In this document: positions 2,421-37,725 of the stretch, piece after piece
How positions within the stretch are numbered: the stretch's first letter is position 1
How the letters are laid out: the number at the start of each line of letters is the position of its first letter
Virus record (IMG/VR): IMGVR_UViG_3300028549_003662
Location: 82,099-146,098 of that record
DNA: 64,000 nucleotides
Source of the DNA: a virus
Direction: 5' to 3' (one strand)
Translations under genes and position numbers: made by a program
The notes under the pieces: model-generated
Told to the model about the DNA's origin: nothing
Seen by the model: only the letters and a program-made list of their open reading frames with translations
Databases searched by the model: none

Positions 2421-4802
2421 CTAGCCCTCCACGTGGTCGGGGTAGCGGAGGCGGAACGCTTCCACCTGTTCGTCACTGTGCTCGAAGGGGCAGAACTCGT
2501 GCGTGCCGGGTATGATGCGGCCGCAGCACTCGCACTTCGTGTACACGGGGCTCACAGAGAAGTACGGGATGGGGGTGCTGCACATCGCCACCACCATCGC
2601 CTCCACTCCGACGCCGTCCAGTTCCTCACCGGTGTGGAGGTGCACAACGGTACCTCCGCTCAGGATGGGCTGCAGCACGGACTGCGTGCGCAGCAGAAGG
2701 TCCACCTGTCCCTGCAGCTCCACCGGGATGTGGCAGGAGTTGGTGAGATAGGGGGCATCAGAGGTTCCGCGATGCGGGGCCTGGGGGAACACCTTCAACA
2801 TCTTGATGGCGAGCTTGTGGGCGGCGGACTCCGCAGGTGTGGCTTCGAGGTTGAAGAGCTTGCCCGTCTTCTCCGTCCACTCCTCAGTCGTGGTGCGCAT
2901 GTGCTCCAGGATCTTCGCCGCCACAGCCAGGTTGGCCTCTTCAAGGAAGGAGTTGTCGTCGCCGCAGATGTACTCCACGGCCTCCCAGAGACCCACGAAG
3001 CCGACAGTGGTGAAGAAGGTGCTGAAGCCGCGCTTGAAGTTGGCCTTGGCCATGCTGAAGAAGCCGTCGTCGAAGGCCTTCTCCACGATTCCGCGCTTCC
3101 AAAGCTGCTCGTCGCGCACCAGACCCATGACGCGGTCAAGCTGCTGGTAGAAGTGCGCGAGCCGTTTCTCGGTGGTGTTGTGGTTCTCGAACACGCTGCT
3201 CAGCATGGCCAGCATGGGGAGGTTGAGCGTCACCACCTGCAGGGAGCCGGTCTGGTCGGCGTTGCCGAAGAGGCCGCCCACGTGCTTTCTTATATTCTTT
3301 TCCGATATTTGCAAACGACAGCACATACTCCTTACATCTGCGGGGTTTATCTTCTCCCCGGCGCTGTGGCCGTTGATGTAGTTCTGGAAGTAGGGGTTGC
3401 CGAACTTCGCGCTCAGCGAGAAGACGAGATCCTTGAGGGGGTGGCGGAAGAAGGCCTCGGTGACAGAGATGGTGAGGACGGGGAAGGTGAAGCCGGTCCC
3501 CTTGCTGTCGCCGCGCATGAAGTTCTTGAGGATGGCTTCGGCGACGATGTTCTGCCACATCTCGATATCGCCGTAGGTGAGGTACTCGCCCTTGCAGGAG
3601 CATTCGAAGGTGTTGGCACCCCAGCGTTCTTCGAAGGTCTGGCCGCCGACGAGGGGGCGACGATCACGCATGTCTTCAGGAATTGTCAATGATAACGTGA
3701 TATTACTGAAGGGGCTGTTTCCGGTAACGAACATTTTGCGTGTGCTGCCGGGGACATTGCGACGCGCAATGAATGTTCCGGTGTTCGTCGTGGGACACCA
3801 AACTTTCCCTTTGTAGTGCTTACGCCGAACTTCCGTAACGGCGAACTCCCCGATAACATTGGGCGTGTAACGGGTGTCCGGGCGCTTAATCTTCGGAATG
3901 TAATATGCGCCTCCGGCGCTTTCCAACTCTGCAGCTTCACGCACATACAGTTTAGTCAGGCCAGAATCGGTGTACACGACACGATGCTTTTCGGTCACAA
4001 CAGATTCGTAGCCCTCTCCTGAGAAATGCAAAAGGTCGCCATCGTGGTCGTAGATGTTCACATGCGTGAGCTTGTCTGACGTGACAGTTCTTGTTTCGAG
4101 GTCGACAACATATATGGAGTCGCCAACACTGAGCTCGTCGTAGCGCTTCCACCCCTTGTGCGTCAGGCACTCGGTTTTCTCATCGACGCACTGGCCGCCA
4201 TAGCGGGTATTGTAATTGAGATGAAAAATCATCTCCTGCATGGATTGATCGACTTCTTCGAGAGTCATCTTCATGGCCATCTCAGGAGTCATATCGAAGG
4301 TATTGATGCGGGAGAGGAAGAAATCCAGGGCGTAGGGGCCGAGGAAGAGGTCAACATCGTTGAAGGCCTGGGCACCGGCGAACTCGTTGCTGCAGGCTCC
4401 GATGTGATTGATGATGTGGTTGACGGCGCTGCGCAGGCGCTTGGCGGGGCCGCTGATGATGTTCCCGGCCGATATGCCGTCATGGAGGAGATTCTCTAGG
4501 CTGTGGCCGCTGCAGTATGGGGTCTTCACGCCCAGGCCGAGATCGTGGATGTGCACGGCGCCGAGCTCATGCAGGTCAGCGAGACCATCATGTCCGGCCT
4601 TGCGCATCTCCGAGAGGTAGTTGCGCTTCAGCGCCTCTTCACCGATCACCAGCAGCAGTCCCGCCGGGGAGAGATGGCTCATGTTGGCGTTTTCCTTGGC
4701 CAGCAGACCCTCGCCGAGGTAGTTGGCGATAATGGGGTCGATGTCGAGAGTTGGGCCTTGGGGTGAGGCCGTGCCTGTGGCCGAGCTTTGAAGCTGGTCC
4801 AT
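2421..4802 (-). CDS. nrdD: Class III ribonucleotide reductase catalytic subunit; no ATP cone, contains an intein, lacks the glycyl-radical tail
   Basis: KENAN, HIHDL, PYC, AGAQAF, GGQ/SPFSNITL, FTFPV, RSMCCRL, TGSLQVVTLNLP, NLEATPAES, YLTNS, SGGTVVH; ends shortly after the CECC..CPFEH zinc site. Confidence 0.96.
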   Translation of the reverse strand: MDQLQSSATGTASPQGPTLDIDPIIANYLGEGLLAKENANMSHLSPAGLLLVIGEEALKRNYLSEMRKAGHDGLADLHELGAVHIHDLGLGVKTPYCSGHSLENLLHDGISAGNIISGPAKRLRSAVNHIINHIGACSNEFAGAQAFNDVDLFLGPYALDFFLSRINTFDMTPEMAMKMTLEEVDQSMQEMIFHLNYNTRYGGQCVDEKTECLTHKGWKRYDELSVGDSIYVVDLETRTVTSDKLTHVNIYDHDGDLLHFSGEGYESVVTEKHRVVYTDSGLTKLYVREAAELESAGGAYYIPKIKRPDTRYTPNVIGEFAVTEVRRKHYKGKVWCPTTNTGTFIARRNVPGSTRKMFVTGNSPFSNITLSLTIPEDMRDRRPLVGGQTFEERWGANTFECSCKGEYLTYGDIEMWQNIVAEAILKNFMRGDSKGTGFTFPVLTISVTEAFFRHPLKDLVFSLSAKFGNPYFQNYINGHSAGEKINPADVRSMCCRLQISEKNIRKHVGGLFGNADQTGSLQVVTLNLPMLAMLSSVFENHNTTEKRLAHFYQQLDRVMGLVRDEQLWKRGIVEKAFDDGFFSMAKANFKRGFSTFFTTVGFVGLWEAVEYICGDDNSFLEEANLAVAAKILEHMRTTTEEWTEKTGKLFNLEATPAESAAHKLAIKMLKVFPQAPHRGTSDAPYLTNSCHIPVELQGQVDLLLRTQSVLQPILSGGTVVHLHTGEELDGVGVEAMVVAMCSTPIPYFSVSPVYTKCECCGRIIPGTHEFCPFEHSDEQVEAFRLRYPDHVEG
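3717..4190 (-). mobile_element. Mini-intein (158 aa, no homing endonuclease) in NrdD
   Basis: Interrupts GGQ|SPFSN; begins CVDEKTECLTHKGWK (block A), has VTEKH (block B TxxH), ends VWCPTTNTGTFIARRN...VTGN with Ser at +1; lower GC than the host gene. Confidence 0.93.
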
Positions 4803-21891: not shown

Positions 21892-23442
21892 CTAGCCGTT
21901 GAGGTAGCGCAGTCTGAAGGTGCGGTAAGCGCTGAAGAAGCAACCAGAAAAGGAGTCCAGGATGTCGTCGAATGGCGAGCGCGGCCAGTCTTCGAGTTCG
22001 TCGTAGAACCCCTTGAAGCGTCTTCTATCCTCTGGCAGGCGGATAGTCCAGTTGTCAAGATAAGGTTCGAGCATCGCAATGCGCTCTTCCTTCGGGACGC
22101 TGTTCTGCACGCTGCGCGGAACCAGCGTTGTGATGCCGTGCGACTTCAGGTAGGCGCGCAGCGGGGTAATGTAGAATTCGTCGCCACGGTCTTCAATGGT
22201 GAGGCGGTGCACCTTGGCCAGCTTGTCCCACTTCTCCACGACCTTCCTGACCTGCTCGAACTGCTGGCTCTGCCGGTACTGCCCGTACACGCAGTCCACG
22301 AGGAAGAACTGCTTGTTGTCGAGCTTGGCGATGACAGTGATGGCGAAGCGGTCGCTGTCGCCGGTGCGGCGCGTAGCGGCCTTGGTGAGAGACTTTCCGC
22401 CGGTTGGGTCGACGTAGATGTAGATGAGGGGGTTGTAGCGCAGCAGTGTATCGTACTCGGCCTCGGTGTAGTAGCTGTACTGCGCGGGCTTGAAGTAGGC
22501 GTCCTCTTCCTCAACAATCTGGTTCTGCTTCTCCAGCAGGAACGAGCGGCGGCCTTCGAGGTAGTACTCCTTCATCAGGTCTTTGACCGAGTACACCTCT
22601 GGCCAGTTCGACACGCCCCCAATGGCCATCTCGGCTTCGTTGGCATCGTAGAACTCTTCTGCGGCCTCAACGTGCCCTGGCGACATGCGGTCCTTGAGGA
22701 TCTCGCCGTAGGTGTCCCAGAGATCCATGCGCTCCGGGAACACCTCAAGGGCCTTGAAGATCTTGCCATCCCAGGCCGCGAAGTCGTCGCTGTTCAAGAG
22801 CTTGTAGCAGAGCGCGGTCTTGCCCAACACGGTCCCGACGACGAAGATGTCAGTGAACTTGTGGCCGCACTTCAAGATGTCGCGTGTGAAGCGCTCTTCG
22901 ACGTCTGCGGAGATCGTCGGGCTGTTCACGCTCTCGATGGAGTCCGGGTCGTCAATGATGATGAGGTCAGGGCGCCTGTTCTTGTAGCGGATACCGCGGA
23001 TGCTCGACGTCATGCCCGCCACTGCGATGCAGACATCGTTCTTCGTCACGATCATGTCGCGCCGCCACAAGGAGCCCACACCGGCTGCTTCAGGGAAGAA
23101 GCGGTGCACGTCGTCGTTCTCCTCCAAGATGGTCTTGATGGTGAACAACCTGGCTTCGGCCTGGGCGGACGTATCGGAGATGATGAGGATGAACTTGTAG
23201 CGCTTCTGGATGGGAAGGTACTTGTTTCTGCAGACAATCCAGAGCGTGCCGCCCTCGGTGATCGTCGTGGACTTGCCCCAGCCGCGCGGGCCGCCAGCGA
23301 CTTTACGGCGGCCCGTCAACTGATTGCGCTCCACAACGCTCGTGAGGTAGTTGTGGAATTCGGAGAGCGGGTTGAAAAAGGACTCAGGCAGGATGGTGCG
23401 CGCGAACGCTTCGAATCTACTCGCGCAGGCCTCAGCCACCAT
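21892..23442 (-). CDS. terL: Terminase large subunit
   Basis: Walker A PRGWGKST, RGIRYKNRRPDLIIIDDP, nuclease motifs YVDP, DRFAI, DDILDS; start at 23442 or 23535. Confidence 0.95.
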   Translation of the reverse strand: MVAEACASRFEAFARTILPESFFNPLSEFHNYLTSVVERNQLTGRRKVAGGPRGWGKSTTITEGGTLWIVCRNKYLPIQKRYKFILIISDTSAQAEARLFTIKTILEENDDVHRFFPEAAGVGSLWRRDMIVTKNDVCIAVAGMTSSIRGIRYKNRRPDLIIIDDPDSIESVNSPTISADVEERFTRDILKCGHKFTDIFVVGTVLGKTALCYKLLNSDDFAAWDGKIFKALEVFPERMDLWDTYGEILKDRMSPGHVEAAEEFYDANEAEMAIGGVSNWPEVYSVKDLMKEYYLEGRRSFLLEKQNQIVEEEDAYFKPAQYSYYTEAEYDTLLRYNPLIYIYVDPTGGKSLTKAATRRTGDSDRFAITVIAKLDNKQFFLVDCVYGQYRQSQQFEQVRKVVEKWDKLAKVHRLTIEDRGDEFYITPLRAYLKSHGITTLVPRSVQNSVPKEERIAMLEPYLDNWTIRLPEDRRRFKGFYDELEDWPRSPFDDILDSFSGCFFSAYRTFRLRYLNG

Positions 23443-23884
23443 CTCTGGCGAGAGGTTGGACAGCAGAAGTTCCCTCTGGCGCTCCCAAGAATCCCTGTCC
23501 AGATAGCAAGTCGGCGAGAGTACGTCTTGATTCATTTGTGAGCACCAGTGTCTGATTGGTTGTGGTTGTGTTCGACACAGGCTGGCTCAGCTTGCCGCCC
23601 TGCAACTCGAAGTTCATACGAATGGCGTCAAGCTGCAACCGCATGAGGAGGATCTGGTTCTTCTGGAAGGACAGCGCGATCTGCGGCTTTTCCTTCAGAT
23701 TGAGATCGTGGCCGTTCTGCGCGTCCCGAATGCCTTTGTTGATGCAGACGATGAGCTTCTTGATTTCGTGGTCCAGCGGTACCGCTTTAGGGGCGCACAC
23801 CGCAGGAAGCGTTCCCGGCGCACCATCAGGTAGCGTGTCTGCATCAGTGAACGGAGAGAGTGTCGGATCGAAGTCGTCGTTCAT
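23432..23884 (-). CDS. Putative terminase small subunit
   Basis: Helical 150-aa protein directly upstream of and overlapping terL. Confidence 0.55.
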   Translation of the reverse strand: MNDDFDPTLSPFTDADTLPDGAPGTLPAVCAPKAVPLDHEIKKLIVCINKGIRDAQNGHDLNLKEKPQIALSFQKNQILLMRLQLDAIRMNFELQGGKLSQPVSNTTTTNQTLVLTNESRRTLADLLSGQGFLGAPEGTSAVQPLARDGG

Positions 23885-23889
23885 GCCTA

Positions 23890-24615
23890 CTACAGCCCCT
23901 CGTGCACGATCATAAGTTGCTCAGCCAGCGTGAAGTCGTAAATGGCGTCATCGCGAAATGCAACGCCGTACCGGATGACATACTTACTCATCTTCGTGGG
24001 AAGTTCAATAGGCACGTGCCCGGCCCAGAAGAAGTGCTCTCCAAGTTCGTTCACGAGGATCTGGAAGTCCACAAAGCCAGCGCGCTCGAATGCACGCTGC
24101 AGCACAAGTCCTGTTGCGGTGCCGTAGCTCATGGCGTCAATGAAGCCGGAGACGTACTTCGTGGACTTCTCCGCGAGCAGCTTGATGAACTCCTCGATGG
24201 TGATACCGCTCTCCAGGGCGTCGAAGCGGCTCATCGCCAAAAGGTCAACGACGATGTGCTCCACCGGAGCGCACTCGCGCAGGTAGGCGAAGGCGTCCCC
24301 AATGATGACGTTCTTCCCCCACACGTTGCGTCGACGCGGGCAGAAGCGCTCGCAAGCGTTCACGACCATCTCGTCGATCTCCACCATCTTCCAGTCCGTG
24401 ATGCCGTGGCGGACGAGAACCTCAACCGCTGTGAGGTCGCCACCGCCGAGGATGAGGGTGCTCCACCCGTGGTTGGGTCCGAGCATCATCTCGTAGTACT
24501 CGTTGTTCGGCAGCGCGGACTGCGGGTACCCGTCAAGGATGAGCTCCACGAGCGCGCCCTTGCGGTAGATCATGATGTGCTGAAACGGGGTGATGTCTGA
24601 GTAGATGACTTCCAC
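23890..24615 (-). CDS. speE: Spermidine synthase-like aminopropyltransferase
   Basis: TPFQHI, LILDG.PQS, YYEMM, LILGGGD, VEIDEMVV..C, IGDAFAYL, IVVD. Confidence 0.85.
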   Translation of the reverse strand: MEVIYSDITPFQHIMIYRKGALVELILDGYPQSALPNNEYYEMMLGPNHGWSTLILGGGDLTAVEVLVRHGITDWKMVEIDEMVVNACERFCPRRRNVWGKNVIIGDAFAYLRECAPVEHIVVDLLAMSRFDALESGITIEEFIKLLAEKSTKYVSGFIDAMSYGTATGLVLQRAFERAGFVDFQILVNELGEHFFWAGHVPIELPTKMSKYVIRYGVAFRDDAIYDFTLAEQLMIVHEGL

Positions 24616-31377: not shown

Positions 31378-32258
31378 CTCGGCCTCCCGATGTTGCCGGA
31401 ATTGCCCTTGCCGATGGCGGTGACGTCCATCGCGGTGTAGTTGCTCCGCGGCATGTCCGGCCACGCGCATGCACGCGGGAGGTTGCCCATCATGGCCTTG
31501 CAACGACTGAGGTCGAGCAGGCAGTTCGGCGCGATGGTAATATCCGACGTGGTGTCGAGGAACGTCGACAGCGGGTACTTCGTGGTGATGACCGAGCCCT
31601 GCACGGACTTGAAGGTGTTACCCTGTTCGAGGTCAAAGGAGTACGTGCCGTCATCGACCTTGATCGTCGTCATCAGCAAGCCGTTCGTCCAGTAGTTGAA
31701 ATCGAGCGCGGAGCCGACGTCGATGCTGCGCGGACCCACCTGCGTCCACGAGCCGGCGGGGATGACCTGCTTCAATGCGTCGAAGTCCAGGCCGCAGTAG
31801 CGTCCGTACAGGTCGTGGTTGCAGTAGCGCTGCGTGTAGTAGGTGATGAGTTCGGTGTTCGAGGCTCCAATGGGGGAACCGAAGCTGATGTTGATGATGT
31901 TTTCCGAGAGTGCAGCGCTGAGCATGTTGCCGTAAAAGATGCTCACAGAGGCATTGAGCTCCTCGCGCCAGCGGAAGATCTCCATCTTCAGGCGTGGGGA
32001 GTTCTTGATGACCATCTCAATCCACAGCCGCGATGCCGGCAGGCGAATCTTGGTCTCGGCGTCGACCTCGTCAGACTTGATTTCCTCGTGCGCGCACGGG
32101 TAGGGCTTGAAGATGACACCATCATCCGGCATCTCTTCACGACCAGTACAGTACGGAACGATGCTAGTGATGGAACGCCCCATGAAGGTGAACTTGTAGA
32201 AATAGCGGATGTGGCCACTGGCTACCGCGCGGTCCCATGCTTTGTTGCTGGCTGCCAT
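31374..32258 (-). CDS. Baseplate hub / tail-tip protein (DUF2163, BR0599, gpL-like)
   Basis: YTQRYCNHDLYGRYCGLD and IAPNCLLDLSRC Cys motifs of the Fe-S type. Confidence 0.85.
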   Translation of the reverse strand: MAASNKAWDRAVASGHIRYFYKFTFMGRSITSIVPYCTGREEMPDDGVIFKPYPCAHEEIKSDEVDAETKIRLPASRLWIEMVIKNSPRLKMEIFRWREELNASVSIFYGNMLSAALSENIINISFGSPIGASNTELITYYTQRYCNHDLYGRYCGLDFDALKQVIPAGSWTQVGPRSIDVGSALDFNYWTNGLLMTTIKVDDGTYSFDLEQGNTFKSVQGSVITTKYPLSTFLDTTSDITIAPNCLLDLSRCKAMMGNLPRACAWPDMPRSNYTAMDVTAIGKGNSGNIGRPR

Positions 32259-33034
32259 TAGATGTCATCCTCCGGGTAAATCCGCGGCTGCTCCGTCCAG
32301 GGGTCGTAGTAGTTGGTGACGTCTTCAACGAGCTCCATCTGGGCTTCCACGATGGCGGAAGTCGTGAAATCGAAACTGACTTCATCTTTGTTCATGCGCA
32401 TATACGCGCATTCCGTGATGAGGTCCACATCACCGTACTCAATCTCAGGGATGTTGTGCGCGCAGTTCACGCGCAGCACGCGGAAGTCCTCAGTCGGGAC
32501 GATGCTGGTGGGGCGCGTCCAGAAGCACTTCTTGAAGCCGTCGTAGAAAATGAGGATGAGCCGCTTGGAGGCGCTCCAATATTTGGTCTGCCCCCAGTTC
32601 AGCGCGTGGAAGTAGTTGCGCGGGTTCCCCTGCTGATCGTTACCGCCGATGACCTCCAGGCCCTCCATGCTGGGGAAGACCTCCGGGCCGTGCCCGACAG
32701 GAAAGAACTGGTGGGAAAGCGTTGTCGTCCAGAACGACATGTAGCGGCCCTCGACGGCGAACGTGAAGTCGAGCAGCTTGTTGTACTGCGACCGCGTATG
32801 CGCGCGCATGTTGAGCTGGCACACCGTCATCGGCTCCGGCGCCAGGAGGAACTCCGCGTAGGTTCCGGTGCCGAAATCAGCTACTGCGCCCTTGTAGGAG
32901 AGCATGAAGCCGGTGTCCTCATAAAGCATCGCATCTGGCCGGGGGAGGCACACGATGTCGTAGTTGGGCGGCAGGTTGATGTGCGCGGGCGTGGTGTCCC
33001 CGATGACGTACATGGCGTTGTGCAGATAGCTCAC
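32258..33034 (-). CDS. Distal tail protein-like
   Basis: R.QY..L.DF..AVEGR..SFWT and RMNKDEV; directly upstream of the hub gene. Confidence 0.55.
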   Translation of the reverse strand: MSYLHNAMYVIGDTTPAHINLPPNYDIVCLPRPDAMLYEDTGFMLSYKGAVADFGTGTYAEFLLAPEPMTVCQLNMRAHTRSQYNKLLDFTFAVEGRYMSFWTTTLSHQFFPVGHGPEVFPSMEGLEVIGGNDQQGNPRNYFHALNWGQTKYWSASKRLILIFYDGFKKCFWTRPTSIVPTEDFRVLRVNCAHNIPEIEYGDVDLITECAYMRMNKDEVSFDFTTSAIVEAQMELVEDVTNYYDPWTEQPRIYPEDDI

Positions 33035-33690
33035 AGGATGGCCCTCTTGTTCTCACCGCCGGATACGCGCGCAGTGAGGCTTACTTCGTGCACGCCGTCA
33101 CCGGCGTAGAACATGCTGATGTTCATGTCGGCAACGACAATCTCTATGGGGTAATGCAGCACCAGCGAGAACATGTAGTCCACCGTCCACGGGATCTCGT
33201 AGTCGGCCAGCATGTGAATGGTTACAAAGGGGGCGACGTCCGCCACAGCTTCGGCGCGGCAGTACACGGTGTGCACGGTCCTATCGGTGTCCAGCACCAG
33301 AGCGATGGCGAAGTCTGTAGCACTTTGCAAGGTGTCTTCGAGATACTCCGTGAGGAGGTAGTCGAGCACGCGGATGTTCTTGCTGTCGACGATGGTGATG
33401 CCGGGGATCTGCTTCAGGCTGTGCGTGACGTAGACTTTACTGTCCGGTCCAAACAGGCCGCCTGCCATCCCCATGAGGAGGTTGGCGGTGTACATGGCGT
33501 AGTAGTGGTTCATCTGCGTCTTGAGGCTGAAATTCGCGCTGGGATCGAAGTTGATGCTCTTGTTGAACTGCAGCACGACCCGCGATTCGTTCTCTGTGAG
33601 TTGCGCAAGCTCTACACGTTTGTCCAGGTTGGCGGTCTTCTCATCACCGCGCTCCTGGATGTGGACGAACGGCAGCACCAGCTTATCCAT
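33031..33690 (-). CDS. Distal tail-associated protein
   Basis: Coupled ORF in the tail-tip operon; weak Dit-like ENESRVVL. Confidence 0.5.
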   Translation of the reverse strand: MDKLVLPFVHIQERGDEKTANLDKRVELAQLTENESRVVLQFNKSINFDPSANFSLKTQMNHYYAMYTANLLMGMAGGLFGPDSKVYVTHSLKQIPGITIVDSKNIRVLDYLLTEYLEDTLQSATDFAIALVLDTDRTVHTVYCRAEAVADVAPFVTIHMLADYEIPWTVDYMFSLVLHYPIEIVVADMNISMFYAGDGVHEVSLTARVSGGENKRAIL

Positions 33691-34243
33691 ATACCTGCCC
33701 CTTGGTGGTTTCAATTTCCGCTTTCACCACGGAACCGTCCACATTGCAAGACTTGTAGTAGCCCATCACCACCGGGACAAGGTACACGGCTTCGCTCTGC
33801 ACGTTGTTGGAGTAGAAGCGGGATGTGATGATGTTGTGACTGTTCGGGATGCTGATTACTTCAGCACGGCCGCCGTAGGTGTTGCCGGAGACAACGATGA
33901 TGGCTTCCTTGACGCGGAACCACGACAAGTACTCGCTGATGGCTTCCTCGGTCTCCCACAGTGTGGTGCCTCCAGAGGTGTCCACTATGCGCGCGCACAC
34001 CATGTCGGGGCGGAACGGTACAGGAACAGGGTTGCCGTCGTTGGCCAAGATTGACTTGGATTCTGCGCTCACGTAGAGCCAATTTCTAGAATACTGCCCG
34101 GTAAATTCAGATTCTACTGAGAGCGTTATCTGCGGTCCTAGTGTACTGGTGCGTAGGGTGCCAGAGCCTACAGTCTCCGCGACGCTGTTGTAATGCAGCA
34201 CCGACATCGTCAACTTGGTTTCTTTTTTATCACCGGAGCTCAT
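33683..34243 (-). CDS. Distal tail-associated protein; first gene of the leftward operon
   Basis: ORF with PVPVPFRPD; start at 34243 (GGGG RBS) or 34207. Confidence 0.5.
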   Translation of the reverse strand: MSSGDKKETKLTMSVLHYNSVAETVGSGTLRTSTLGPQITLSVESEFTGQYSRNWLYVSAESKSILANDGNPVPVPFRPDMVCARIVDTSGGTTLWETEEAISEYLSWFRVKEAIIVVSGNTYGGRAEVISIPNSHNIITSRFYSNNVQSEAVYLVPVVMGYYKSCNVDGSVVKAEIETTKGQVYG

Positions 34244-35182
34244 GTGTACCCCATCACTTCTATTTTCAGGACAGAAAGCGGCTTCATCCCCGGTTACGGC
34301 CTCGCACCCGCGCGGCCAGGTCGCTACGAGTTCCCGACGGCGCTGTTGCTGTTGTCGCGCAACACCCTGCACAGCGTCTCCTGTGTCGAGGTATCCGAGA
34401 ACATTCCTGGCGTCGTGATCTCAACGCGCCGTGGGTTCTACGGCGTGCAGGAGGACATGTACCAGGGTGCGCCGGTATTCTCAATAGACAACATCCCCCT
34501 GCGCCTGATCGAACCCGCGCGCTCCAGTCTGACTGATGCGCAGGTCGTCGACATGTCCATGCGCGCTACTGTAGCACTATGTGCGCTCCCGCTGCAGGCG
34601 GTAAACCACCGCATACGCGATCTGGTGTTCATGGAGTTCCGTGTGAAGCCCATTTCGGGCCAGGAAGCCAACGCCGCCTACCAGTACATCCTCGACTTCT
34701 CGAAGCTCTCTACCGCACACATCTACATGTGGTTCTACCACTTCCTGGTCTGTATGTTCCGTCTGAACGGCTTGCGCATCAACCGCTCGGAGAACTTCAT
34801 CCGGCTGCAGATGGTGAATGTGTGGTGGCGTGACATCGTCCTCATGCTGCTCAAGCACTTCGCGGTCGACTACACGATGCGCTTTTTTAATGCGACATCC
34901 GAAGTGCGCTTTTCCCGTCGGGAGTTCCGCCGCATGCTCAGCCGCATGCTCACCGTGGGGTTCCCTCGTCTTGTAGAGGACTTCGCGCTGGTTGACGCTG
35001 TGACCACGAAAGATACGGTTATTTTGGGAGATGACGGGGTCGTTGTACTGGACGAGAGCACGGACGCTCCCGGTAAAATTACGAGCACAAAGCTGCGTGG
35101 CAAGTACGTCGAGTACGTCGGGCTCCATATCAGCTTCCCCGAAATCACAGAATTTGTAGAGACCAATGGCTTGATTTTGTAG
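34244..35182 (+). CDS. Free-standing degenerate intein-like protein (Hint plus LAGLIDADG remnant)
   Basis: MYPITSIFRTESGFIP is in register with Hint block A; FLVCMFRLNG resembles FLxGLFDxDG; C-terminal KITST...YVGLHI...FVETNGLIL resembles blocks F/G; GGAG RBS before GTG. Confidence 0.6.
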   Translation: MYPITSIFRTESGFIPGYGLAPARPGRYEFPTALLLLSRNTLHSVSCVEVSENIPGVVISTRRGFYGVQEDMYQGAPVFSIDNIPLRLIEPARSSLTDAQVVDMSMRATVALCALPLQAVNHRIRDLVFMEFRVKPISGQEANAAYQYILDFSKLSTAHIYMWFYHFLVCMFRLNGLRINRSENFIRLQMVNVWWRDIVLMLLKHFAVDYTMRFFNATSEVRFSRREFRRMLSRMLTVGFPRLVEDFALVDAVTTKDTVILGDDGVVVLDESTDAPGKITSTKLRGKYVEYVGLHISFPEITEFVETNGLIL

Positions 35183-35451: not shown

Positions 35452-36186
35452 ATGGGCAACATCATCCTTCCCGCCGAAGCGCCCTTCGACCTCTACAAGG
35501 CCGCATACGTTTTCTACCATCGGCGGAACCTGCGCCTGTGCCATTTCACCTTCGTTTACCCGAACAAGCAGTTCAGCACCCGCAACGGTGATGTGTTGCT
35601 CGGCATCAACGTCGACACCGGAAACCAAGCGGTGTCGAAATTCGCACGCCTGTCAGAGGTGATGGAGTTCTTCGGGGACAACCTGGAGTTCCGCTTCCTC
35701 TACCAGATCAGTGACGACGTCATCTGCGGGTTCGCCAATAAGGACCGCACCCGTGTCCTCGACGCCGTCTTCACTTTCTTCGACAACTACCGCCGCAGCA
35801 TGGCTGAGCTCATGGGGTACGAGACCATCATCCACAACCACGAGCTCATTGAAGTCAACGGCGTGCGGATCGTTGTGCAGCACGGTGACAAGTTTATCTC
35901 GCCGGATGAACGCATCGTCTTGTTCCGCTCTGGTATCGACTACGTGGTCTGGGCGACGAACAAGGAACCCGGCATTCAGAAAAATCTCTGCTCAAACGCG
36001 CCCACACTATCCGGTTTTGCCAAGAGCTCGCACATGCTGCTCACTGGCGACTGGTTTGTTCCGGCGAAAGGTCACATGCTGGTTTCGAAAGCCGGTGGCC
36101 AATCCAAGGAACAGCTCGTCAAAGGCTTCACCGCCTATCTTTCAGACACACTGGCACGCGCGACGCCTGGACAGGCGTGCAAGTAA
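35452..36186 (+). CDS. Hypothetical protein, possibly a degenerate MYG1/DHH-family fold
   Basis: IILP...FD...AY, VDTG, WFVPAKGHML; AAGGA RBS. Confidence 0.55.
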   Translation: MGNIILPAEAPFDLYKAAYVFYHRRNLRLCHFTFVYPNKQFSTRNGDVLLGINVDTGNQAVSKFARLSEVMEFFGDNLEFRFLYQISDDVICGFANKDRTRVLDAVFTFFDNYRRSMAELMGYETIIHNHELIEVNGVRIVVQHGDKFISPDERIVLFRSGIDYVVWATNKEPGIQKNLCSNAPTLSGFAKSSHMLLTGDWFVPAKGHMLVSKAGGQSKEQLVKGFTAYLSDTLARATPGQACK

Positions 36187-36207: not shown

Positions 36208-36726
36208 ATGCCCAACAAGTCTGTTCATCCGCATCGCAAAATGACGTCCATGCTCATCACCGGTGGCGACGCCGGCCGCTGGGTGGACCTCGACCTCCAA
36301 CTGACTCTGCCGCCCGAAGGTGGTAAGTTCGTTGGTCGTCTCACCGCCGCTGGCGCCGACCTGAATAAGCTCGGCCTCATCAACGGTGCCAACACTGACG
36401 GCAAGGTCTACGGCTTGCTGCCGGTGTCGCGCAACCCCAACTTCATCCAGCACGACATCCACGAGCGTGCGGCCCACCCGTCGTACGTGTACCCGGCCGG
36501 CCAGTCCGTGTACGTCATCAACGACCTCACCGGCCAGTTCCTCATCAAGGTGAAGGGCGACATCGCCACCGCGAAGTCCGGCCTCTCCTACGCCCTGGTC
36601 GTCGAAAACGGCGTGCAGCTTCTGGATCTCGCCACCCCCGGCGGCCCCGTCATCGTGACGGACGAGATCACGGAATCCGAGCGCGGCTACGTCCGTGTGA
36701 AACTCAACAGCGCGGCCGTCGCGTAA
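36208..36726 (+). CDS. Head decoration / capsid-associated protein
   Basis: Directly upstream of the major capsid gene; AGGAGG RBS; highly biased codons. Confidence 0.65.
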   Translation: MPNKSVHPHRKMTSMLITGGDAGRWVDLDLQLTLPPEGGKFVGRLTAAGADLNKLGLINGANTDGKVYGLLPVSRNPNFIQHDIHERAAHPSYVYPAGQSVYVINDLTGQFLIKVKGDIATAKSGLSYALVVENGVQLLDLATPGGPVIVTDEITESERGYVRVKLNSAAVA

Positions 36727-36747: not shown

Positions 36748-37725
36748 ATGGCTTTGCAGAGAACTGATTTCACCCAGGCTCTGACCAAGAAAGGTTACGA
36801 GATTTTCTGGGATAACTACGTCGAAGTCGACAACGTCTGGGAGGGCCTGTTCCGTCAGGAGCCGTTGACCTCCGGCGCCTACATTGAGCGCGCGTCCATG
36901 ATCGGTCTGGGCGACCTGACCGAGAAGGGTGAGAACGAGCCCTTCACCTACGACATCCCCGCCGATGGCTGGCCTGTCCTGGGCAAGGTGCGCACCTTTG
37001 CGAAGGGCTTCGCCTTCAGCATGGAGCTCTACGAGGACACCCAGATCGAGAACCTGTTCTCGCAGTACGTCGCGCAATGGGGCGAAGCCTACATGCGCAC
37101 GCGTGACCGCTTCTACAGCAACTTCCTCAACAACGGCGCCCTGCTCACCGGCCACGAAGTGTTCGACAACACCGTGCCCGGCGTGAAGATCGACCCCACC
37201 GGGAAGTTCATCTACGACGGTAAGCCCTTCTTCGCCGATGCCGGCAACGCGCATCCGCTGAAGATGTGCGACAAGACCATCGTGAACTACTTCCCGCTGC
37301 CGCTCACCCACGAGAACTTTGCCACCGTGTGGCAGAGCATGACCATCAACAACGCCTTCGACGAGAAGGGCGACGAGATCAACCTGGCCCCGGACACCCT
37401 GGTCATTCACCCCTCCCTGAAGTTCAAGGTGAAGGAGATCCTCGAAAGCGAGTTCCTCCCCAGCGTTTCCGGCACCCCGTCCATCCGCAACCCGCTCCGC
37501 GGGCTCGTGAGCGCCGTCATCGAATGGCGTCGCCTCGACGATCCCAACGGCTGGTTCCTCATGCAGCGTCAGCGCGGCCTTGTCGCCCTGAACCGCAAGG
37601 AGCTCTCCCTGGACGTTTGGGTGGACCCCGAAACCAAGCAGGTCAAGGCCACCGTCAACTGCCGCTTCGGCGGGTACGTTGACAACTGCCGCTACACCAC
37701 GGCCTGCAACATCCGGCAGAGCTAG
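36748..37725 (+). CDS. Major capsid protein (HK97 fold, Mu gpT-like)
   Basis: EKGENEPFTYD, FAKGFAFSME, DGKPFF...HP, PDTLVIHPSL, LDDPNGWFL, RFGGY; followed by a terminator. Confidence 0.9.
   Translation: MALQRTDFTQALTKKGYEIFWDNYVEVDNVWEGLFRQEPLTSGAYIERASMIGLGDLTEKGENEPFTYDIPADGWPVLGKVRTFAKGFAFSMELYEDTQIENLFSQYVAQWGEAYMRTRDRFYSNFLNNGALLTGHEVFDNTVPGVKIDPTGKFIYDGKPFFADAGNAHPLKMCDKTIVNYFPLPLTHENFATVWQSMTINNAFDEKGDEINLAPDTLVIHPSLKFKVKEILESEFLPSVSGTPSIRNPLRGLVSAVIEWRRLDDPNGWFLMQRQRGLVALNRKELSLDVWVDPETKQVKATVNCRFGGYVDNCRYTTACNIRQS

Follow-up and report, generated by a model that had tools for sequence, protein, structure and literature searches.

The stretch of DNA described here, referred to as the window, comprises 64,000 nucleotides of viral DNA and corresponds to bases 82099-146098 of the 146-kb IMG/VR virus record IMGVR_UViG_3300028549_003662, which is estimated to be 91% complete. 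Judged from the guanine-cytosine (GC) content at third codon positions, coding runs on the minus strand up to about position 34243 and on the plus strand from 34244 to 60872. The first gene of the plus arm (34244-35182) encodes a stand-alone protein of 312 amino acids that most likely represents a domesticated intein put to a new use. We describe this gene, the family to which it belongs, the features that it has lost and retained compared to canonical inteins, and the functions that can be considered for it.

The gene at the junction of the two coding arms

The longest open reading frame (ORF) at the locus covers 34193-35182, and the true start lies within it at GTG 34244. This start is supported by the residues M-Y-P-I-T-S, which open six of the seven close homologues; the GTG codon is retained in two of the related loci, L001 and L004, the region 5' of it shows no conservation at the protein level, and the third-position GC content of 0.74 in this frame is usual for coding sequence here. 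A preliminary description of the window had reported an intact ORF of this length with a ribosome-binding site and had read it as a free-standing, intein-like gene devoid of exteins and catalytic residues. The homologue starts, the GGAG motif (Table 1) and the third-position GC content bear out the frame, and the observation of the gene is confirmed in every detail.

The ATG of the divergent neighbour (34243-34241) touches the GTG of the intein-derived gene, giving CAT directly followed by GTG at 34241-34246. This CAT does not vary among the window, L001, L004, and L008, and 0-2 nucleotides separate both starts. In the window and three relatives, the ribosome-binding site of each gene lies within the opposite gene, and presumably each promoter does likewise, so that both 5' leaders would be antisense to each other.

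Table 1. Coordinates of the intein-derived gene, its parts and other features of the phage
Feature	Position	Strand	Details
Intein-derived stand-alone gene	34244..35182	+	312 aa plus TAG stop, GTG start; based on translation, homologue starts, model and fold searches
Ribosome-binding site GGAG	34235..34238	+	5 nt 5' of the GTG; within the opening codons of the divergent minus-strand gene; kept in window, L001 and L004
N-terminal Hint half, residues 1-92 (predicted)	34244..34519	+	block A-like motif MYPxTSIFRTxxGxxPxY; block B remnant T61-R-R-G64 (34424-34435)
LAGLIDADG-type domain, residues 93-255 (predicted)	34520..35008	+	helices 98-112 (34535-34579) and 157-173 (34712-34762), without catalytic acidic residues; WRD motif 195-197
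C-terminal Hint half, residues 256-312 (predicted)	35009..35179	+	block F/G-like SFPE...ExNG-h-h-h; ends two residues before the intein His-Asn
Divergent neighbour, 186 aa	33683..34243	-	no known family, no PHROG match; based on ORF list, tblastn, junction alignment and gene maps
Major capsid protein	36748-37725	+	PF25209
Tape measure protein, 3473 aa	45047-55468	+	PhageMin_Tail (1701-1886), SLT lytic transglycosylase (2887-2984)
Large terminase	21892-23535	-	terL
Spermidine/spermine-synthase-like gene	23890-24615	-	PF01564, E 6e-11; just upstream of terL; also in L001
Anaerobic ribonucleotide reductase NrdD	2421-4802	-	PF13597, E 3e-110
Canonical Hint-plus-LAGLIDADG intein in C5 DNA methyltransferase	G000:C1 about 32131-34527 (L006:418-2814), outside the window	-	363 aa, residues 76-438

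Predicted intein architecture and lost catalytic residues

An AlphaFold model calculated from a 24-sequence alignment reached a predicted local distance difference test score (pLDDT) of 89.3 and a predicted template modelling score of 0.88; with the seven close homologues only, a poor model was obtained (pLDDT 51). The better model shows the Hint horseshoe that characterises inteins (residues 1-92 and 256-312) with a LAGLIDADG-type domain inserted into it (94-255), i.e., the stand-alone protein is predicted to have the architecture of a full-length intein. A check for these two folds had been named beforehand, and the model came through it. In Foldseek searches against the PDB, the top four matches are endonuclease-containing inteins, namely TliVMA (E 7e-8), a second TliVMA entry, PhoVMA, and PI-PfuI, and inteins with endonucleases also lead two VIA-align runs. 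In a scan of 48,161 representative chains, 48 of the 50 best matches are inteins, Hint, bacterial intein-like (BIL) or hedgehog domains, or LAGLIDADG proteins, and the matches in a viral structure library are intein-carrying helicases, terminases, reductases, and polymerases. The second LAGLIDADG half is predicted as a complete alpha-beta-beta-alpha-beta-beta-alpha unit (residues 157-237, pLDDT above 90), which is the core topology of LAGLIDADG homing endonucleases, and the first half (98-155) is truncated to helices, its beta sheet being gone. Both LAGLIDADG helices are predicted confidently and align with those of I-DmoI, I-CreI, and WhiA; overall, I-CreI, I-MsoI, and I-CvuI align to residues 154-258 and I-DmoI to residues 94-246.

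The residues needed for splicing are missing at both ends of the protein. In more than 25 solved inteins, it is residue 2 that matches residue 2 of the model, and Met1 therefore occupies the position of Cys1, as the proposed alignment with intein block A had suggested; T10 and G13 are present in every member having an N-terminus, P16 in most. The window and most homologues whose N-terminus is present have Met at position 1; others have Ala, Leu or Phe, and Cys occurs only in the distant homologue P0023 (L009:148-1155). This protein starts with Met-Ile-Cys-Tyr-Ser, which places a Cys at intein position 1 after a two-residue leader, and this Cys may be a vestige of the original Cys1; other homologues start with Met-Val-Ala, Met-Leu-Ala, or Met-Ile-Leu. 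The absence of the block B motif TxxH extends to nearly the whole family, in which the motif reads TxxG (T61-R-R-G64 in the window) and 20 of 22 members have Gly at the fourth position, P0019 having His and P0014 Asn.

The helix described as LAGLIDADG-like but lacking acidic residues turned out to be one of two such helices, and among the 24 members neither ends in a conserved Asp or Glu. Helix 1 ends in S-G, with P0019 still reading FLAGLISSGK, and helix 2 ends in F-R-x-G, where a base takes the place of the acid. At the other end, the chain was said to stop just before the position of the terminal His-Asn, and the last residue, L312 (...ETNGLIL), indeed aligns with residue N-2 of many solved inteins, among them Ssp DnaB (152 of 154), gp41-1 (123 of 125), Mtu RecA (438 of 440), BIL2 (141 of N143), PI-SceI and PI-PfuI (452 of 454), and MchDnaB. 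The residues at the His-Asn positions of longer-tailed homologues are unconserved. Near the C-terminus, N308 is invariant and F298 and E306 are nearly so. The possibility that N308 is the terminal splicing Asn, with a tiny C-extein behind it, was considered and rejected, as structural alignments assign this residue to the Asn-Gly turn of block G.

Exteins are absent: translation begins at intein position 1, the chain ends at N-2, the upstream gene is divergent, and no fused homologues were found. Lacking exteins, Cys1, the block B His, the terminal His-Asn, and the acidic residues of LAGLIDADG enzymes, the protein is, judged from its sequence and predicted structure, incapable of splicing and of DNA cleavage by known chemistry, and the non-splicing, non-cutting part of the preliminary description stands. 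Descent from an intein with loss of both activities is in our judgement very probable. The ancestor would have been a full-length intein in which a LAGLIDADG endonuclease domain was inserted into a Hint splicing domain.

Searches by sequence return little for this family. For the 312-aa protein no Pfam family was found at E up to 10 and no PHROG match was obtained, and sequence and profile searches of the PDB gave noise only for the protein and its family; likewise, none of the 24 members matched an intein family of Pfam beyond noise at E up to 1. Neither the intein and Hint profile hidden Markov models (HMMs) PF14890, PF13403, and PF07591 nor the LAGLIDADG profiles PF14528, PF00961, PF03161, and PF05204 matched the stand-alone protein, and megablast and tblastn against 50,697 phage records gave no match to its gene. 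The homologues are about 25 sequences without name, all from metagenomes and none from NCBI or UniRef. Besides the window's own protein they include seven close homologues at 55-65% identity, and a phmmer search covering 1.84 billion representatives of all protein lengths yielded 20 matches among 50%-cluster representatives, reaching down to ~20% identity. All genuine homologues have 228-341 aa, those from the phmmer search 228-335 aa, and for the family of about 25 sequences a length of 277-341 aa is given; no fused, embedded, or longer homologue was found in this search or in a profile search among longer proteins. One candidate for a fused form, P0022 (980 aa), was excluded, since its 12 short matches to the hydrophobic LAGLIDADG helix 2 look like a repeat artefact. 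The ESM Atlas contains a model of P0027, which is of low quality (pLDDT 0.34) and has uninformative neighbours.

Conservation, genomic position and other genes of the phage

The ratio of non-synonymous to synonymous substitution rates (dN/dS) is 0.17-0.21 among the window, L001, and L004, with dS near saturation. All three segments of the protein are constrained by this measure, the N-terminal Hint part most strongly, and the gene is intact in family members down to ~20% identity. Neutral decay had been named beforehand as the outcome that would speak against a domesticated gene; the purifying selection and the intact homologues at the same position point the other way, and the gene is fixed, under purifying selection, and not decaying. 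The matches among cluster representatives, the fixed genomic position, and the dN/dS values together exclude a chance origin.

The phages that carry the gene form a clade of large, uncultivated tailed phages of 78-146 kb. In every inspectable locus (the window, L001-L004, L008, L010-L013, L016, L019, and L020; the upstream side is cut off on two short contigs) it stands head-to-head with a homologous gene of 184-192 aa, called as 157 aa in L001-L003, which opens one structural arm, and this position is kept from relatives with 60% GC to relatives with 37% GC. In a metagenome scan with a neighbouring 258-aa gene as query, most loci were too short to judge presence or absence. In most loci the gene heads the capsid operon, often overlapping the next small gene. 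In three loci with 36-37% GC (L010:8001-8981, L011:3747-4727, and L016:1747-2727), it is the sole gene on its strand inside a tail operon, flanked on one side by tail-fibre genes (Collar, Gp53-like_C, Kelch) and on the other by the conserved neighbour, here of 190 aa, and the capsid operon lies elsewhere. Being the sole gene on its strand, it must form its own transcription unit in these loci, and because the facing neighbour is kept there without the capsid operon, the link to the neighbour is older than that to the capsid operon.

The plus arm of the window further encodes a head-tail adaptor and tube-like proteins besides the major capsid and tape measure proteins (Table 1). Between the intein-derived gene and the capsid gene lie two plus-strand genes at 35452-36186 (244 aa) and 36208-36726 (172 aa), which are conserved in all relatives, share 85% and 65% identity, respectively, with their counterparts in L001, and have no Pfam or PHROG match; by position they may encode a protease or a scaffold. 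By the rule of thumb of about 1.5 A of tail length per tape measure residue, the tape measure protein implies a tail of roughly half a micrometre; that of a relative has 3523 aa. The minus arm contains tail-assembly-like genes, the spermidine-synthase-like gene, the large terminase, and a 948-aa ORF just downstream of the terminase. The presence of NrdD suggests that the host of the phage is anaerobic.

The same genome also harbours a canonical intein of the same Hint-plus-LAGLIDADG architecture, which, unlike the stand-alone protein, is embedded in a host protein, a C5 DNA methyltransferase. Its insertion point is the catalytic GGTP/CQ motif of this enzyme. The intein reads GGTP/C...VVHN/CQ, has Cys1, the His-Asn pair, and a Cys at +1, and matches the Pfam families Hint_2, Intein_splicing, LAGLIDADG_3, and Hom_end; metagenomes contain at least 960 methylase inteins related to it. 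When PF14890 and PF14528 were run against the phage's own genome, they matched the methylase intein only. BLASTP of the stand-alone protein against the methylase intein gave an E-value of 1 or worse, and a comparison of the family with 120 methylase inteins by hhalign yielded only a weak local match, which lies in the right sub-domain (E 0.03, probability 1.6%) and which we do not count as evidence.

Functional readings of a dead intein

The closest known systems are inteins with a homing endonuclease, i.e., TliVMA and PhoVMA (PDB 7qsu, 7qss, 7qst), PI-PfuI (1dq3), and PI-SceI (1vde). Compared to these, the stand-alone protein lacks exteins, Cys1, the block B His, and the terminal His-Asn, is shorter, has a first LAGLIDADG half without beta sheet, and is detected by no intein HMM. 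A second relation is to the yeast HO endonuclease, which is active. The phage protein, by comparison, has neither acidic catalytic residues and an active site nor an extra domain such as a C-terminal zinc finger, ends inside block G, and is viral and prokaryotic. What it shares with HO and the WHO elements (Coughlan et al. 2020, eLife 9:e55336; preprint 10.1101/2020.01.20.913210) is a free-standing gene that descends from a Hint-plus-LAGLIDADG intein and that the host genome has retained for another task; HO is described in the preprint as an endonuclease with a fused zinc-finger domain (10.1101/2020.01.20.913210). In our literature search HO/WHO, still a nuclease, was the sole published free-standing adopted intein found, and none was found in phages. 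A third relation is to WhiA (DUF199; PDB 3hyi, 3hyj, 8dy7), which has two full LAGLIDADG halves, a C-terminal helix-turn-helix giving DNA specificity, and no Hint domain. The phage protein has no such helix-turn-helix (PF02650), and its LAGLIDADG unit is embedded in a Hint fold. By analogy, it may be a nuclease-dead LAGLIDADG DNA binder that resembles WhiA in mode and HO in its intein descent.

The charge of the central domain would fit binding of DNA. This domain is basic in 24 of 24 members, with an isoelectric point (pI) of 9.0-10.25 and a net charge of +4 to +12, and the Hint halves are mostly acidic or neutral. TliVMA and PhoVMA, the closest solved relatives, differ in exactly this respect, TliVMA being DNA-binding with a pI of 10.2 and the degenerate PhoVMA having a pI of 5.45 and binding no DNA (PMC8966425); the basic centre of the stand-alone protein resembles the former and is unlike the latter, i.e., other than PhoVMA it has kept a basic endonuclease-type domain. 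The GTG start in three close lineages suggests a low abundance of the protein. Taken together, the divergent position, the own transcription unit in one lineage, the weak GTG start, and the basic centre point to a low-abundance, non-cutting binder of nucleic acid at an operon junction. The basic LAGLIDADG-type domain, with one four-stranded beta saddle intact, would bind a specific nucleic-acid site without cutting it, in a mode comparable to that of WhiA and nuclease-dead homing endonucleases, and the conserved Hint horseshoe would provide either a rigid body or a surface for contacts with proteins. As a target, the junction of the two back-to-back structural operons would be the likeliest, and binding there could tune late expression.

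We consider this explanation as a whole, a dead intein that acts as a nucleic-acid binder at the operon junction, the best available and assign it a probability of about 0.6. Its parts differ in strength. That the protein binds nucleic acid is a reasonable proposition with slightly less than even odds; that it regulates the divergent operons is a tentative suggestion, and equally tentative is the idea that this phage clade turned a whole intein into a sequence-specific, non-cutting DNA- or RNA-binding factor controlling the starts of back-to-back operons. Of the preliminary description, the loss of activities is upheld, a DNA-binding regulator would fit the basic centre and the divergent position, and the homing shield has gained no support.

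Several observations weigh against this explanation. No DNA or RNA target was found, the junction has no sigma-70-like promoter, and the repeats and inverted repeats that surround the gene are short and do not exceed what chance would give. With the beta sheet of the first LAGLIDADG half gone, only half a saddle is left, and the strongest conservation is found in the Hint part (the block A-like N-terminus, SFPE, ExN) rather than in this saddle. Homology to inteins is undetectable by sequence, be it with Pfam, PDB profiles, or the hhalign comparison with the methylase inteins, and the descent therefore rests on the predicted structure and the order of motifs. Finally, the overlap or near-contact with the next small gene of the capsid operon in most lineages fits a co-expressed assembly protein equally well.

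This last point leads to the main rival, in which the protein would act in morphogenesis or be part of the virion, its dead intein fold serving as a pure protein scaffold in head or tail assembly without any role for nucleic acid. The gene lies among structural genes and is in most lineages the first of the capsid operon, overlapping or nearly abutting its successor; conservation peaks in the Hint part around the former active-site cleft, and WhiA (8dy7 and 8dy9 were matched) shows that degenerate LAGLIDADG domains can contact proteins. Three observations speak against a pure scaffold: the central domain is strongly basic in all 24 members; in the 37%-GC lineage the gene is separated from the capsid operon and runs opposite to its structural neighbours; and the GTG start is unexpected for a high-copy protein. 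We regard this alternative as possible but doubtful.

Far less probable is a homing block, in which the dead endonuclease domain would bind an old or related homing site and thereby protect the genome in co-infection. The LAGLIDADG fold and the basic surface are kept, as such a role would need, and the intein in the methylase of the same genome indicates that homing elements circulate in this phage. However, the stand-alone protein has no similarity to this resident intein, no candidate site was found, and its position has stayed the same across very deep divergence, although a shield would be expected to follow a mobile opponent. An intein remnant that is decaying or still selfish and has no function for the phage is more improbable still. 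All catalytic residues are gone, as in degenerating inteins such as PhoVMA, and in the comparison of the window with L001 the gene is among the less conserved syntenic genes (63% in a range of 56-86%), but the ORF is intact in all members, every segment shows the low dN/dS, the gene is present in every inspectable locus rather than sporadically, and without nuclease it has no means of homing. Hardly credible is a non-canonical self-processing or trans-acting cleavage activity retained by the Hint domain, which the conservation of the Hint core, of N308 and E306, and the Cys of P0023 might recall, since the chain ending at N-2 makes N308 the block G turn residue and not the terminal Asn, the His-Asn positions are unconserved in longer homologues, the block B His is missing in 21 of 22 members, and position 1 is Met, Ala, Leu, or Phe elsewhere. 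A maturase for a group I intron was rejected, as no Rfam family was found in the window and no group I intron in the 146-kb record.

The finding bears on the biology of inteins in general, which are usually regarded as purely selfish elements. Here, a predicted complete intein fold without host protein and without either activity is nevertheless kept under selection at one position in phages that have diverged to ~20% identity and from 60% to 37% GC, which shows that the Hint-plus-LAGLIDADG scaffold is reusable beyond splicing and cutting and that this reuse occurred in bacterial viruses. The protein also offers a natural nuclease-dead LAGLIDADG scaffold with a potentially mappable target. The finding gives an identity to a family of nameless metagenomic proteins, and it illustrates that sequence profiles overlook such relics, which structure prediction from a modest alignment can recover. 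If the tentative reading as a sequence-specific regulator of the back-to-back operons is true, no domesticated intein would have been described from a bacteriophage before, nor any that serves regulation instead of DNA cleavage.
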